In this document: one piece after another, positions 1-10,470 of the stretch
How positions within the stretch are numbered: position 1 is the first letter of the stretch
Layout of the letters: the number at the start of each line of letters is the position of its first letter
Assembly: GCA_964578975.1 (NCBI GenBank)
Contig: CAZOFA010000001.1
Location: 4,111-68,110, forward strand
Reading direction: 5' to 3'
DNA: 64,000 bases
Origin: an uncultured Coxiellaceae bacterium
GTDB taxonomy: Bacteria > Pseudomonadota > Gammaproteobacteria > DSM-16500
Program-made: the position numbers and the translations under genes
The notes under the pieces: model-generated
The model's database searches: none
Told to the model about the DNA's origin: nothing
Seen by the model: the letters and a program-made list of their open reading frames with translations, nothing else

Positions 1-2279
1 AATTGATTTGCATTATTTCTTAAAATAATTTGATTAAAATTAATCTGGTCGTGAGAAGCATGCACGATAACAGGATATGTTTTTCCTAACATTGTAAATG
101 TTTGAAGTGTATTTTCATTAAAAAGCAATGATAAATTCTGCGTTATCGTGTCAATTGAAATACCTGCATGTGCTGCCTTTGCTCTATCAACCTCGATGAC
201 TTCTTGCGGTGTATTAAAATGCACATCTTGATCTAAAAATAAGAATTTTCCTGATTGCAGCGCATGATGTTTGATTTGTTCGCTGATGTCGTACAATTTT
301 TTATAATCTATCGAACTTTTCAGCACAAATTCAACCGGCAGTCCAGCATCGATGGGTAATGGACTTGGCTCAATGACCGTTGCTTGAATGCCCGTAATTG
401 CATTGATTTGTTCTTGTAATTGATTTAATAATCTTTGCCAATGTTTCGTTGGTTTAAACGTAATGAATGATAAAAACTGATGTTCATCAGGGATATTATT
501 AATATAAACGTAACGATCGATTTCTGCTTGATGGTGATAAACTGTATTGAGTTGTTGGGTGTAGCGCTGCAAATAATTTGTAGTTGTTGAGTTGGGCGCA
601 TTACCCATCACTTGCAGAAAGCCTTGATTTTCCCGTGGTAAAAGATTTTTGGTCACAACACTATATAAAAATACGCTGGCTAAGATTAAAAAGCCTATTA
701 CTAAAATCATTTTCAATTTTTTTTGTTGTAGTAGAGCAGCAAGCAAGGATAGATATTTTTTCTTAAGATAAGTAATTATTTTTTCGCTGACAGAAAGTGT
801 TATGCGTGTTTGCGGTAATAGTGTTGCACACATCATGGGTGATAAAATAATTGCAAGCACAGCTGAAATGATAACCGATAATGATAATGTCAACGCAAAT
901 TCAGCAGATAATTTTGTTGTTATTCCATTCACAACTATCAGTGGCAAATACACAACGCTTAAAATTAAACTCATGCTGATTAACGGCGCGATCATTTCTC
1001 GCGCGCCCTGCAACGCTGCCTCATCAAGTGACGCGCCTTGTTCTCGATAGCGATAAATATTTTCTAACATAATAATCGCATCATCCACCACCAGCCCAAT
1101 CGCCAGCACCATGGCGAGCAGTGTCACGACGTTCAGAGAACACTGAAAAACCCAGAGAAAAATACACACGCCAATTAATGATAATGGTATGGTGACCAAA
1201 GGAATTAGCGTGGCACGCATGCAGTTTAGGCTGCAATAAATAACAACTAAAATGATAAAAAAAGTCATGATGATGGTTATGCTTAATTCCGTGACGGCAA
1301 GATTGATATAACGACTGGCATCGTAAATGATGTTGCTGGTCATTGTGTTGGGTAAAAAAGTTTTACTCTGCGACAAAATAATTTTAATTTTTTTTGCAAC
1401 CCATAATGGATTGGCTTCCGGTAAAAGTTGGATAAAGAGCATTGTCGCAGGTAGTCCATTCACAATGGTTGTGATCTTATCCGAGTCGGCGCCGAGTGTA
1501 GCCATGCCAATATCGTTTAAACGGACTAAATGATTCGGTAACGCACGAAGAACGATATGATTAAACTGATTGACAGTGCTAAGCTCAGTGTCGGCAAATA
1601 AATCAGTTTGCGTATCCCTATTTTTATTGATGCCAGTGGCACTGATTATATTTTGGTTTTTGAGACTGTTCGCTACATCAAGTGGTGTTAAACCATGCAT
1701 CACAAGACGATTTGGATCAAGTGAGATGCGCATTGCATAATGCTCGCCCATGACTTGTGCCGCTGCGACACCTGGAATTAATTCTAATGATGGTTTTATG
1801 TAACGCTCCAAATAATCATTCATGGCTAATGGCGATAAACGAGCGCTGGTAAAAGCAATAATTGAAATTGGTTTATCATCCGCGGAAATTTTTTTTATGA
1901 CAGGCTCATCTGCTTCTCTCGGCAAATTTTGTCTGACTACCGCAATTTTTTGTATCACATCATTCAGCGCTAAAATTGAAGATTCTCCTAATTCAAAATG
2001 CACTTGAATATTGCTTTGTCCGCTACGACTTGAAGAAGTGAGATAGTCAATTCCATCGATTCCCGCCAACGCATCTTGCAACACATTTGTAATAGCGTCT
2101 TCCACCACATTTGCTGAAGCACCTTGATACAAAGTTGTGATATCAATCACAGGAATATCGATTTTTGGCATTAAACGTATGGGCAAATGAAACAACGCCA
2201 TGCCACCCACTAACAAGATAAAAATACATAAAGTCAGCGACAGTACCGGTTTATGAATAAAATAATCAGTAAAATGCAT
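1..2279 (-). CDS. RND (AcrB/HAE1-type) efflux permease; 3' end cut by window edge, about 759 N-terminal codons present
   Basis: Absent from the ORF track because it runs off the window. My minus-strand translation from ATG 2279-2277 reads MHFTDYFIHKPVLSLTLCIFILLVGGMALFHLPIRLMPKIDIPVIDITTLYQGASANVVED... and stays open to position 1. It contains an RND TM4-type segment, AMVLAIGLVVDDAIIMLENIYRY. The start overlaps the adaptor gene stop (TGATG). Confidence 0.85.
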   Translation of the reverse strand, partial: MHFTDYFIHKPVLSLTLCIFILLVGGMALFHLPIRLMPKIDIPVIDITTLYQGASANVVEDAITNVLQDALAGIDGIDYLTSSSRSGQSNIQVHFELGESSILALNDVIQKIAVVRQNLPREADEPVIKKISADDKPISIIAFTSARLSPLAMNDYLERYIKPSLELIPGVAAAQVMGEHYAMRISLDPNRLVMHGLTPLDVANSLKNQNIISATGINKNRDTQTDLFADTELSTVNQFNHIVLRALPNHLVRLNDIGMATLGADSDKITTIVNGLPATMLFIQLLPEANPLWVAKKIKIILSQSKTFLPNTMTSNIIYDASRYINLAVTELSITIIMTFFIILVVIYCSLNCMRATLIPLVTIPLSLIGVCIFLWVFQCSLNVVTLLAMVLAIGLVVDDAIIMLENIYRYREQGASLDEAALQGAREMIAPLISMSLILSVVYLPLIVVNGITTKLSAEFALTLSLSVIISAVLAIILSPMMCATLLPQTRITLSVSEKIITYLKKKYLSLLAALLQQKKLKMILVIGFLILASVFLYSVVTKNLLPRENQGFLQVMGNAPNSTTTNYLQRYTQQLNTVYHHQAEIDRYVYINNIPDEHQFLSFITFKPTKHWQRLLNQLQEQINAITGIQATVIEPSPLPIDAGLPVEFVLKSSIDYKKLYDISEQIKHHALQSGKFLFLDQDVHFNTPQEVIEVDRAKAAHAGISIDTITQNLSLLFNENTLQTFTMLGKTYPVIVHASHDQINFNQIILRNNANQ

Positions 2280-9228: not shown

Positions 9229-10470
9229 TTATGTGACTTGCTTTCGCAAAAAATCATCTGTGTTATCGCGTTCACGGATTAATTTCATCTTTTTTTTATT
9301 CATCAACACTTCAGCCGGATGACCATGACCTAAAAATCCTGTCGGTGATGCCGTCGCGCCATAAGCGCCTGAAGCAAAAATTGCGATGCAATCACCCGCA
9401 TTTGCCAGTGGAAGCTCGACCGCGCGTCCGATGACATCGGCCGGCGTGCATAACGGGCCCGTGATATGATAATGCTTACTTTGATTTGATTTATTTTTTG
9501 TTAACAATTGAATGGGAAAATTTCTTTTTAAAAAAGAACCATAACCCGCTGCAGTCAAATGACAATTCATGCCGCCATCCGTAATGAGAAACGAGACACC
9601 CCGTGATTCTTTAACATTATCGATTCGGCTAATGAATACACCTGCATCTGCCACTAAATAACGACCACTTTCTATAATAATTCGCATCTCAGGATATTTA
9701 GCTTGATAATTTTCAATCAATGGATGCATCATTTTTTTTAATTCGGTCATATCAAATTTTTCTTCATGATTAAAATAAGGCACACCAATTCCACCGCCCA
9801 AATCAACCATCGAAAATTTAAACTTCCACTCACACGATAATTCATCAGATAAACGCAATATTTCTTTACAATTTTCATAAAACGCATCTGCCCGCAATAT
9901 TCGCGTCCCATTAAAAACATGAATTCCCTTAATATTGATATTATTTTTATCCAAAAAAAATTGTTTATGCTTCAATACATCAATTTTATCGATACCAAAT
10001 TGCGATGGGACACCGCCCATTTTTAAGGAGGCGTCCCTGATTGAAAATTCCGGGTTAATCCGGATCGCAACGTTTGCTACCACTTCTCTCGTTTTGGCTA
10101 GTTGATCAATCAGCTCGAATTCTTGTTTTGATTCACACACAATCGCATAAATTTTATGTTCGAGTGCTGTGGCAATATCTTCAGGTTTTTTTAACGGTCC
10201 TACAAAAATAATTTGCTCAGCCGTGAAACCTGCTTTTAATGCACTTTTTAATTCTGTTTCAGAACACACCTCAGCCCCTGCGCCACATTTTTTTAATGTC
10301 GTCGCAATTGCAAGATTCGGATTTGCTTTTAATGAATAAAATATATCTGTTGCACAACCGTCTTTTAATAAAAAATATTTTTCTTCAATCACGGCTTGAT
10401 CGTATACATACAACGGCGTGCCAAATTCTTCTGCCGCGCGATAAAGTAATTGATGATATGCTTCGTGCAT
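9229..10470 (-). CDS. PLP-dependent decarboxylase, Orn/DAP/Arg decarboxylase family (alanine-racemase fold)
   Basis: YSLKANPN (PLP lysine), DLGGGIGVPY, ESGRYLVADAG, GPLCTPADV, SGAYGATAS. This is the complete motif set of LysA/ODC-type enzymes. Confidence 0.85.
   Translation of the reverse strand: MHEAYHQLLYRAAEEFGTPLYVYDQAVIEEKYFLLKDGCATDIFYSLKANPNLAIATTLKKCGAGAEVCSETELKSALKAGFTAEQIIFVGPLKKPEDIATALEHKIYAIVCESKQEFELIDQLAKTREVVANVAIRINPEFSIRDASLKMGGVPSQFGIDKIDVLKHKQFFLDKNNINIKGIHVFNGTRILRADAFYENCKEILRLSDELSCEWKFKFSMVDLGGGIGVPYFNHEEKFDMTELKKMMHPLIENYQAKYPEMRIIIESGRYLVADAGVFISRIDNVKESRGVSFLITDGGMNCHLTAAGYGSFLKRNFPIQLLTKNKSNQSKHYHITGPLCTPADVIGRAVELPLANAGDCIAIFASGAYGATASPTGFLGHGHPAEVLMNKKKMKLIRERDNTDDFLRKQVT

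Follow-up and report, generated by a model that had tools for sequence, protein, structure and literature searches.

A Carrier-Protein-Centred Operon of an Uncultured Coxiellaceae Bacterium with a Predicted Route from L-Aspartate to Dehydro-β-alanine

The first 10,470 nucleotides of a 64-kb stretch of DNA from an uncultured Coxiellaceae bacterium (contig CAZOFA010000001.1 of GenBank assembly GCA_964578975.1, positions 4,111 to 68,110; the whole stretch is called the window below) hold a compact operon of biosynthetic and export genes, and the question that this locus raises is what kind of molecule they make. An initial annotation had recognised most of the parts, and had considered the chemistry not predictable from known families. 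In the present work, we examine the operon by means of profile searches, structure models and comparison with related loci, and find that this view was too cautious, since the dehydro-β-alanine pathways of bolagladin (Bol) and AFC-BC11 (Afc) use the same enzyme set. We will argue, with moderate confidence, that the operon specifies a "type II NRPS-like" pathway (NRPS, nonribosomal peptide synthetase) which is organised around a carrier protein, starts from L-aspartate and includes the formation of dehydro-β-alanine. For the opening steps, from aspartate to a β-alanyl thioester of the acyl carrier protein (ACP), our confidence is considerably higher.

A reading of the open reading frames (ORFs) of the window gives nine consecutive, tightly packed ORFs on the minus strand of positions 1-10470. 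From the upstream end, and with a candidate promoter region in front, the features are:

10471-10588, minus strand: candidate operon promoter region (118 nt; GAGGA ribosome-binding site, weak -35/-10-like match)
9229-10470, minus strand: decarboxylase (413 aa)
8804-9067, minus strand: carrier protein, ACP (87 aa)
7953-8807, minus strand: protein X (284 aa)
7252-7956, minus strand: protein Y (234 aa, GTG start)
6109-7239, minus strand: acyl-CoA dehydrogenase, ACAD (376 aa)
4829-6112, minus strand: protein resembling multidrug and toxic compound extrusion (MATE) transporters (427 aa)
3303-4832, minus strand: ANL adenylating enzyme, ANL1, called the ligase below (509 aa)
2279-3292, minus strand: adaptor of a resistance-nodulation-division (RND) pump (337 aa)
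1-2282, minus strand: RND pump (760 codons, cut by the window start)

Five junctions are 4-nt overlaps (8804-8807, 7953-7956, 6109-6112, 4829-4832 and 2279-2282), two are short gaps of 12 nt (7240-7251) and 10 nt (3293-3302), and the sole long gap in the operon measures 161 nt (9068-9228). Coordinates and junctions are as the initial annotation had described them. The Pfam domains found (AMP-binding, PP-binding, Acyl-CoA_dh_M/_1, Orn_Arg_deC_N/Orn_DAP_Arg_deC, MatE, HlyD-type and ACR_tran) confirm the main domain assignments, and with them its list of parts, namely a free-standing NRPS-like ANL enzyme, a carrier protein, a LysA-fold decarboxylase, a MATE-like protein and an RND pump. The description as a co-oriented biosynthesis-plus-export operon also stands, and the gene order recurs elsewhere. 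On the contigs that carry the close homologues of X, the same order is found next to murI-rlmJ at four related Coxiellaceae-type loci; a genome scan identified two such contigs as metagenome-assembled genomes (MAGs) of uncultured Coxiellaceae bacteria, and added a more distant Gammaproteobacteria MAG. The source is accordingly a Coxiellaceae-type (Legionellales) bacterium, and the cluster occupies a fixed place on the chromosome, beside murI-rlmJ. Because the order recurs there in four loci and also in Ralstonia, the association of the genes is more than chance.

The starting unit is indicated by the ligase. It matches PF00501 and PF13193 and is by sequence an NRPS-type adenylation domain, the best stand-alone PDB match being VinN (3wvn/3wv4, 206 bits). 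Its specificity residues are D207, Y208, Y211, P248, T275, T277, M301, K308 and R309, together with the invariant Lys of the NGKIDK motif (A10), and they spell the code DYYPTTMKRK, which agrees with the published code of FlvN in 10/10 positions and with that of VinN in 8/10. A first extraction used a fragment of GrsA as the anchor of the alignment, and for GrsA itself it gave the correct code, DAWTIAAICK. The reading obtained in this way, DYYPTTMRCK, was replaced because the stretch from A7 to A8 is longer by one residue in GrsA, by which the last pair is shifted; for the final extraction, the VinN/FlvN spacing was taken from the AFC-BC11 supplement (PMC12186527). The codes given there are DYYPTTMKRK for FlvN (L-Asp, β-COOH), DFYPTSMKRK for VinN (3-methyl-Asp, β-COOH) and DASTATMFRK for AfcQ (L-Asp, β-COOH) (PMC12186527 supplement). 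In VinN, the amino group of the substrate is bound by Asp230 and the α-carboxylate by Ser299/Arg331 (PMC7756342). The ligase shows the residues expected of a VinN/FlvN-type enzyme, i.e. Asp at A1, Ser/Thr at A6, Met at A7 and the basic pair that corresponds to Lys330/Arg331 in VinN.

The code DYYPTTMKRK is invariant in 7/7 Coxiellaceae-type orthologues and in Ralstonia. Elsewhere it reads DYYPTTMHRK (Rahnella) and DYHPSTMHRK (Tritonibacter), and in the more distant clusters of Rahnella, Tritonibacter and Burkholderia cenocepacia 7/10 positions agree, the α-carboxylate-binding Thr and Arg being among those kept. As the code is both invariant and identical to that of FlvN, it argues strongly for a ligase that activates the β-carboxyl of L-Asp, and not proline or a fatty acid; a fatty-acid substrate is disfavoured also because the Asp that binds the amino group is conserved. 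Two ideas of the initial annotation are affected. The extraction of the specificity residues that it had proposed gives a result of the Asp-β type, which speaks against proline, and its fatty-acyl-AMP ligase does not fit an enzyme that has the amino-binding Asp and whose best matches are amino-acid adenylation domains and VinN.

The decarboxylase (PF02784/PF00278) is a pyridoxal-phosphate-dependent enzyme of the alanine-racemase fold. Its best PDB sequence match is BtrK, the L-glutamyl-[BtrI ACP] decarboxylase, with 280 bits vs 181 for the best diaminopimelate (DAP) decarboxylase. In Tritonibacter mobilis F1926, an 812-aa protein that is annotated only as "acyl-CoA dehydrogenase family protein" (locus L016, 4726-7164 of the region, plasmid NZ_CP015232.1) consists of the decarboxylase (residues 15-422) fused to an ACAD (514-806), and the annotated features under the matches suggest the same fusion in Gemmobacter and Rhizobium. 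Since the two are fused in Tritonibacter, decarboxylase and ACAD would act on the same tethered substrate and not on free amino acids. Among the NCBIfam models, TIGR03099 (363 bits, below its own cut-off) scores higher than lysA (309 bits), and the gene context is a biosynthetic one. The decarboxylase gene adjoins the ACP gene, and this pair is conserved in the related loci. On these grounds the enzyme is predicted to be of the BtrK/VinO/BolN/AfcP type, with a carrier-bound substrate. The LysA/ODC-type supplier of a free (poly)amine, as first proposed, is not supported, in view of the BtrK-type sequence and the fusion to the ACAD.

The ACP itself matches PF00550 with 28.2 bits (cut-off 20.8) and has the phosphopantetheine site LGLDSIT. 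Its matches to the NCBIfam ACP models are weak, and it occupies the same position in all related loci. This free-standing protein is predicted to be the hub that carries all intermediates.

An enzyme set of this kind has been studied in two Burkholderia systems. In bolagladin biosynthesis, BolO is VinN-like, BolC is the ACP, BolN is BtrK-like and BolQ is an ACAD; deletion of bolN abolishes bolagladin production, with no rescue by β-alanine, and deletion of bolQ yields an analogue with β-alanine in place of dehydro-β-alanine (PMC7756342). BolM and BolP, homologues of 3-ketoacyl-ACP synthase III (KAS III), have Ser or Thr where the active-site Cys is expected (PMC7756342). For AFC-BC11, AfcQ, AfcK and AfcP produce the β-alanyl-carrier protein from Asp in vitro, with iterative extension by AfcQ; the chain is capped by a fatty-acyl-AMP ligase, the BolQ homologue AfcE is the proposed desaturase, and the KAS III-like AfcL off-loads the chain, which has been reconstituted in vitro (PMC12186527). 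The operon shares with these systems a free-standing VinN-type enzyme with the α-carboxylate-binding Arg, a free carrier protein, a BtrK-like decarboxylase and an ACAD, and also, when the relatives are included, several KAS III-fold proteins of which some are without the active-site Cys. Dedicated membrane export genes are common to both as well, and so is a β-alanine part without a condensation domain.

The ACAD (PF02770 and PF00441) is not the canonical enzyme that the initial annotation had described. It is divergent, with only 57 bits to its best PDB match, medium-chain acyl-CoA dehydrogenase (MCAD), and without an N-domain Pfam match. The catalytic-Glu motif FEFMEGTENIQ is kept, with E344, M346, E347 and G348 invariant in 17 family members; the family comprises 72 word-indexed homologues. 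By analogy with BolQ and AfcE, and because of the decarboxylase-ACAD fusion, we predict an α,β-dehydrogenase that converts (N-acyl)-β-alanyl-ACP into dehydro-β-alanyl-ACP.

Protein Y, encoded just upstream of the ACAD by the gene that the initial annotation had left undescribed, has seven homologues and no Pfam or NCBIfam model of its own; PF00441 is reached below threshold, with 18.4 bits. A profile search with Y finds syntenic small ORFs in Ralstonia, Streptomyces and Mechercharimyces. In Foldseek searches its AlphaFold2 model (pLDDT 77) matches the middle β-domain and the C-terminal helical domain of ACADs (E 3e-6 downward), and also 6wy9_B, a subunit of a heteromeric steroid ACAD. Y is without the N-terminal domain, and it ends with RDIYFY, six residues short of the position of the catalytic Glu. 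From the model we infer that Y pairs with the ACAD as a subunit without catalytic function. Y and the ACAD total 610 aa vs ~616 aa for BolQ and AfcE, a likeness that is suggestive only. The steroid α2β2 ACADs (Tcur3481-Tcur3483, PDB 6wy9) are likewise encoded by two adjacent, translationally coupled ACAD-fold genes, one of them without the catalytic base. They differ in that Y is without the whole N-terminal domain and far more diverged, in that the substrate here is predicted to be carrier-bound, and in that the heteromer is here only a prediction.

The remaining three genes concern export. The MATE-like protein matches PF01554 with 30.6 bits (cut-off 24.9), in its C-terminal half only, and its gene is conserved in the Coxiellaceae-type loci, Ralstonia and Mechercharimyces and absent from the related locus L012. 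By sequence, this membrane protein of the MOP superfamily is predicted to be an inner-membrane exporter. The RND adaptor is a membrane-fusion protein (TIGR01730, 205 bits, cut-off 94.9; PF16576). The pump matches PF00873 with 537 bits over profile positions 2-768/1021, so that the N-terminal 760 of ~1020 residues are present. Full-length orthologues have 990-1025 aa, and the pump gene, and with it probably the operon, runs past the window edge.

Look-ups with the exact protein sequences gave only Logan contigs of 1.2-1.7 kb from SRR9179562, or no match. This edge is important for the interpretation. According to the initial annotation there is no ketosynthase (KS) or release enzyme, and within the window indeed no Cys-bearing KAS III is found, the only thiolase-fold protein being X, which has no conserved Cys, Ser or His. 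In the related loci L004, L007 and L012, however, the gene directly after that of the pump encodes a KAS III-like protein whose cysteine lies in the motif NNCAS (the L004 sequence ends inside this gene). A second adenylating enzyme comes after the KAS III in L007 and L012, and L012 adds a racemase and a transglutaminase-core protein. In the pump-less loci L002/L003 and L008 and in Ralstonia, genes for a KAS III, a second adenylating enzyme and transglutaminase-like proteins follow directly after the first ligase. The best stand-alone structures for the second adenylating enzyme are AlmE (4OXI, Gly; 258 bits) and, at 218 bits, VinM (8K4R) and IdnL7 (6AKD; Gly, Ala, Ser). As the window stops inside the pump gene, ahead of the point at which relatives carry the KAS III, the missing KS or release enzyme is most likely a window-edge effect.

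Taken with the relatives, the parts suggest the following route. The ligase would activate the β-carboxyl of L-Asp and thioesterify it to the 87-aa ACP, as its specificity code indicates. The BtrK-type decarboxylase would then strip the free α-carboxyl of the carrier-bound isoaspartyl group to give β-alanyl-S-ACP, a step suggested by homology and by the gene fusion. Next, the β-amino group would be capped, either by a VinM/IdnL7/AlmE-like enzyme for a small amino acid, as is encoded past the pump in relatives, or through iterative use of the first adenylating enzyme, as shown for AfcQ. The ACAD, probably as a heteromer with Y, would dehydrogenate the Cα-Cβ bond to the dehydro-β-alanyl (enamide) unit, in analogy to BolQ/AfcE. 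A Cys-bearing KAS III-like enzyme, seen in relatives and here outside the window, may off-load the chain from the ACP in the manner of AfcL, with X as its likely partner or scaffold. The product would finally leave the cell via the MATE-like protein and the RND pump with its adaptor.

The part of X in this route deserves a separate discussion. No Pfam or NCBIfam family matches it, only 7 close homologues were found among 5.8 billion proteins, and a profile search gave 248 clusters among 1.84 billion representatives. The AlphaFold2 model (pLDDT 82, pTM 0.83) matches FabH, OleA and AbyA1 in Foldseek at E ~1e-10, which is the thiolase/KAS III fold. Across 130 members, no Cys, Ser or His is conserved, the conserved residues being D33/L34, D76, D88/P89, D110, G115, Q145, P149, P158 and D269. 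In our own motif alignment to E. coli FabH, the position that we take to be the Cys is occupied by A, S, T, V, M or L. Where the His would presumably stand, members of the close family, and only these, have Lys; the presumed Asn position is N or I, and in place of the assumed Gly-rich loop we read DEDVET. The Cys-less thiolase-fold protein of the initial annotation is hence borne out by AlphaFold2 and Foldseek, with the Cys-His-Asn triad missing. In five loci of four other lineages, a KAS III-like gene comes immediately after an X-like gene, namely in Rahnella (twice), Mechercharimyces, B. cenocepacia and Tritonibacter. We infer that X is a pseudo-enzyme which accompanies a KAS III-type transferase without being catalytic itself, or else a scaffold for docking of the ACP. 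Of all the steps in the model, this one is the weakest.

The genes for decarboxylase, ACP, X, Y and ACAD form a block that recurs in Coxiellaceae MAGs, the Gammaproteobacteria MAG, Ralstonia, Mechercharimyces (Bacillota) and Streptomyces. The clusters in other phyla were reached through homologues of the ACAD. Judged from the gene orders, the five genes are a conserved module with interchangeable loaders and exporters. A complete ten-gene set is present on the megaplasmid NZ_CP039340.1 of Ralstonia pseudosolanacearum UW386 (L013, 10561-24680 of the region), with decarboxylase, ACP, X, Y, ACAD, MATE, ligase, KAS III, second ligase and transglutaminase-like genes; export genes of the ABC, FtsX and LolA-like kinds, similar to afcB/G/H, come next. 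In Mechercharimyces sp. CAU 1602 (L010) and Streptomyces sp. NPDC001118 (L011), the loader of the block is a BtrJ-like ATP-grasp enzyme, and KAS III genes lie alongside. In Tritonibacter, an X-like ORF and one with weak likeness to KAS III come after the fusion gene, and then the genes for the DYHPSTMHRK ligase, a carrier protein, two further ANL enzymes and a P450. The loci of Tritonibacter, Rahnella and the B. cenocepacia replicon have decarboxylase, ACAD and X-like genes, with no Y detected.

A number of observations weigh against the proposed route to dehydro-β-alanine. X is without recognisable catalytic residues, and the genes for capping and release lie outside the window. The decarboxylase passes the cut-off of the NCBIfam lysA model (TIGR01048, 309.4 bits, cut-off 297.9). 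The BtrJ-like ATP-grasp loader of the Gram-positive blocks means that the block is not tied to aspartate. The divergent 376-aa ACAD stands against ~616 aa for BolQ and AfcE, so that orthology is at best tentative, and it could act on another acyl group. A comparison by hhalign of Y with the ACAD-family profile was not significant (E 0.14), with FEYFRDIY lined up with EKWYRDAY, and the ACAD-like assignment of Y therefore rests on the structure model, Foldseek and the sub-threshold Pfam match. The operon has no gene for a fatty-acyl-AMP ligase, a citrate synthase, a desaturase or an NRPS, so that the cap and the final acceptor are not indicated. Finally, the comparison with BolQ, AfcE, AfcR and BolP is one with published descriptions and not with sequences.

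Several of these points can be read in another way, in which the steps from Asp to β-alanyl-ACP are the same, and the ACAD and Y oxidise some other carrier-bound acyl group or the product keeps a saturated β-alanine, for example as a β-alanyl peptide or a KAS III-extended amino-ketide. Such a scenario would suit an ACAD that is only distantly related to characterised ACADs and differs in length from BolQ/AfcE, a Cys-bearing KAS III in the relatives that could perform a Claisen extension, and an ATP-grasp loader in the Gram-positive cassettes that implies other amino acids. The decarboxylase-ACAD fusion, on the other hand, places the ACAD directly at the decarboxylation product or a near derivative of it, and BolQ, the sole genetically tested ACAD of this enzyme set, makes dehydro-β-alanine (PMC7756342). 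We consider this scenario unlikely, if still worth keeping in mind.

Less probable is a modification of the cell envelope, comparable to the glycylation of lipid A by AlmEFG, to D-alanylation by Dlt or to the uncharacterised exosortase-A-associated cassette of ligase, ACP and decarboxylase in exopolysaccharide loci. An intermediate that is lipid-linked or part of the envelope would then be handled by the MATE-like protein and the RND pump. The MOP superfamily includes flippases, and AlmE and DltA are similar to the second adenylating enzyme of the relatives. The highest-scoring NCBIfam models are those of the exosortase-A-associated ligase (TIGR03098, 384.7 bits) and decarboxylase (TIGR03099, 363.1 bits), but both scores are below the cut-offs of 592.35 and 478.45, respectively. 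Neither the window nor the 10-kb flanks of the relatives contain an exosortase, PEP-CTERM, glycosyltransferase or AlmG/DltB-type transferase gene, exopolysaccharide genes are likewise absent nearby, and the neighbours are murI, rlmJ, ahpC, proS and fba. These results make an envelope function improbable.

The pathway favoured by the initial annotation, in which proline is converted to a pyrrolyl-2-carboxyl-S-carrier (as by PltF/L/E), or a fatty acyl-ACP is desaturated, and is then joined to a free amine from the LysA/ODC-type enzyme to give an N-acyl-amine or pyrrole-amide, fares considerably worse. Formally, ANL enzyme, carrier protein and ACAD are the same set, and weak matches to the RedW and PigA hidden Markov models were obtained, with a PltF-type ligase (6o6e) far down the PDB list at 132 bits. 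The triad logic is contradicted by the specificity code for β-carboxyl Asp activation and by ACAD scores of 25.9 bits for RedW (cut-off 650) and 17.4 bits for PigA (cut-off 500). The fatty-acyl variant conflicts with the conserved Asp at the amino-binding position, and the amine part with a decarboxylase that is of the BtrK type and fused to the ACAD elsewhere, so that we regard this pathway as very improbable. The view that ordinary housekeeping enzymes (LysA, FadD, FadE, AcpP-like, multidrug efflux) merely lie side by side, to which the lysA match above its cut-off and the many records that label the homologues diaminopimelate decarboxylase or long-chain-fatty-acid-CoA ligase might lead, is likewise very improbable in the face of a translationally coupled gene order conserved across phyla, two cluster-specific orphan families, a BtrK score far above LysA and an amino-acid-type ligase code.

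With the aspartate-to-dehydro-β-alanine route as the preferred reading, the differences from the known systems can be specified. Compared to Bol/Afc, there is a 376-aa ACAD with a separate 234-aa ACAD-like fragment instead of one protein of ~616 aa, and fatty-acyl-AMP ligase, citrate synthase, O-methyltransferase, desaturase and NRPS genes are absent; no fatty-acyl-AMP ligase or citrate-primed tailoring genes were found in the window or in the 10-kb flanks of the relatives. The ligase code is of the FlvN type (DYYPTTMKRK) rather than that of AfcQ (DASTATMFRK), and of the residues listed for AfcL, AfcO and AfcR (Cys/His/Asp or Thr/His/Glu), X has none. Export is by MATE and RND proteins vs ABC and LolA-like proteins, and the host is an uncultured Coxiellaceae-type bacterium vs Burkholderia. 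The core logic is already published, and on this comparison we would file the cluster as an uncharacterised variant, without assigning it to the Bol/Afc family.

In the macrolactam starter pathways of vicenistatin (VinN/L/O/M) and fluvirucin B2 (FlvN/L/O), a stand-alone ACP receives Asp or 3-methyl-Asp via the β-carboxyl, and the decarboxylation follows while the unit is carrier-bound (PMC11284099). The first steps are alike, as are the FlvN-identical code and the VinM/IdnL7-like second adenylating enzyme of the relatives. The differences are that a type I polyketide synthase (PKS), a VinK-type dipeptidyl transferase and a VinJ-type amidohydrolase are missing here, that an ACAD pair and KAS III-fold proteins are found instead, and that the host is Gram-negative. 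No PKS or VinK-like acyltransferase was found in any locus examined, and the VinM-like enzyme occurs only in the related loci. With the butirosin enzymes BtrI/BtrJ/BtrK, the operon shares a decarboxylase that is closest to BtrK, an enzyme acting on an amino acid held on its carrier via the side-chain carboxyl, and the Gram-positive blocks share the BtrJ-like ATP-grasp loader. Here the loader is an ANL enzyme with an Asp code vs an ATP-grasp enzyme acting on Glu, and BtrO/BtrV hydroxylase, BtrH/BtrG and aminoglycoside genes are absent. A lead to solanimycin, from weak NCBIfam matches to SolL and SolG, was rejected, since the solanimycin paper assigns dehydro-α-alanine and contains no such cassette.

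To our knowledge, the dehydro-β-alanine (enamide) block has so far been known only from Burkholderia lipopeptides and Streptomyces enamidonins. If the proposed route is correct, this unit extends to uncultured Coxiellaceae-type bacteria and to others scattered elsewhere, in a reduced cluster that has no NRPS, PKS or lipid-tailoring genes, and a new enamide metabolite in an uncultured lineage of the intracellular type is plausible. X, with ~250 representative clusters, and Y would be two new families that look like dedicated non-catalytic partners of the KAS III transferase and the ACAD, respectively. We offer a more far-reaching idea only tentatively. The block may be a distinct cross-phylum module, in which the two pseudo-enzymes X and Y and their catalytic paralogues assemble round one carrier protein to make and shield a hydrolytically unstable enamine/enamide unit. 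The result would be a new exported enamide peptide without lipid tail, NRPS or PKS, acting on the host or on competitors of a probably host-associated Coxiellaceae bacterium. Ralstonia pseudosolanacearum UW386, a cultivable plant pathogen with the full ten-gene version, is a tractable model for the product and for the roles of X and Y. It is also worth pointing out that the labels "diaminopimelate decarboxylase" and "long-chain-fatty-acid-CoA ligase" given by annotation pipelines hide the pathway.

Some further features of the related clusters were observed. A FecR-like gene lies a few kb upstream of the Ralstonia UW386 cluster, a region that is unannotated in the PLSDB gene table. The Streptomyces locus L011 additionally encodes an AurF-like di-iron protein, a truncated amino-acid-[carrier protein] ligase resembling seryl-tRNA synthetase, a second carrier protein, a thioesterase, a methyltransferase, a halogenase-like flavoprotein and two phosphopantetheinyl transferases; the NCBIfam matches point to no named pathway for this cassette, and the relevant genes are not described in the main text of the olenamidonin paper. 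The Mechercharimyces locus L010 has an extra arginase-family protein. Rahnella aceris carries a large related cluster on plasmid pRAHAQ01 (NC_015062.1; L015, 10757-28130 of the region), with a decarboxylase, three ANL enzymes, two ACADs, a carrier protein, a luciferase-like monooxygenase and a P450, as well as two X-like genes that both have a KAS III gene behind them, and this cluster is kept in at least 10 Rahnella plasmids.

A further uncharacterised cluster is found beside a LuxR/LuxI pair on the 3.2-Mb replicon NZ_CP091013.1 of B. cenocepacia CMCC(B)23006 (L017, 10656-22787 of the region), with genes for an ACAD, two KAS III proteins, an ANL enzyme, a decarboxylase, an ACAD-like protein, a GNAT protein, an X-like protein and a KAS III. 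It is the only Burkholderia hit in the plasmid collection. Its identification with the afc cluster was considered and rejected, because although the ligase code DASTATMFRK equals that of AfcQ, the gene order differs and the LuxR/LuxI pair adjoins, as for a paralogous cluster.

Returning to the operon itself, the ligase ORF is readable from an alternative start at 4949. The overlapping ATG at 4832 is favoured as the start, since AAGGAG lies 8 nt upstream of it and the orthologues have 502-523 aa. Good Shine-Dalgarno sequences are also present ahead of the decarboxylase, ACP, Y and ACAD genes, that of the ACP being a strong AAGGAG site within the 9068-9228 gap. In the promoter region, a match to the promoter consensus at 10603-10575 agrees in 9/12 positions; hits of the promoter and terminator scan were not enriched over shuffles, and the scan says nothing about the transcription unit.

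The gap between the decarboxylase and ACP genes holds, as the initial annotation had noted, a repeat fragment, which is a single arm of a palindromic repeat at ~9095-9165. Full copies, to which this arm was aligned, are found at 23493-23596 and 41882-41971, and the 13-mer CGTCATTGCGAGC of the repeat has 7 hits vs 1.56 expected. The dispersed palindrome of ~80-100 bp reads CGTCATTGCGAG...GCGAAGCAATCCAGG / CCTGGATTGCTTCGC...CTCGCAATGACG, with a weaker match at 49559-49571, and from its sequence looks like a small element of the miniature inverted-repeat transposable element (MITE) type.

The operon is neighboured by the housekeeping genes murI, rlmJ, ahpC, proS and a class-I aldolase gene (fba). 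Between murI and the decarboxylase gene, on the strand of the operon, lies a 372-aa ORF (10589-11707, minus strand) without Pfam or NCBIfam match. The corresponding slot in L002, L004 and L005 is without this ORF, which is a lineage-specific orphan outside the conserved cluster. A 460-aa ORF without Pfam match (13512-14894, minus strand) is located between rlmJ and ahpC, and in the related MAGs the same slot is filled by other orphans, namely ORFs of 163, 574 and 284 aa, and by a gene that resembles the one for the 17-kDa antigen.

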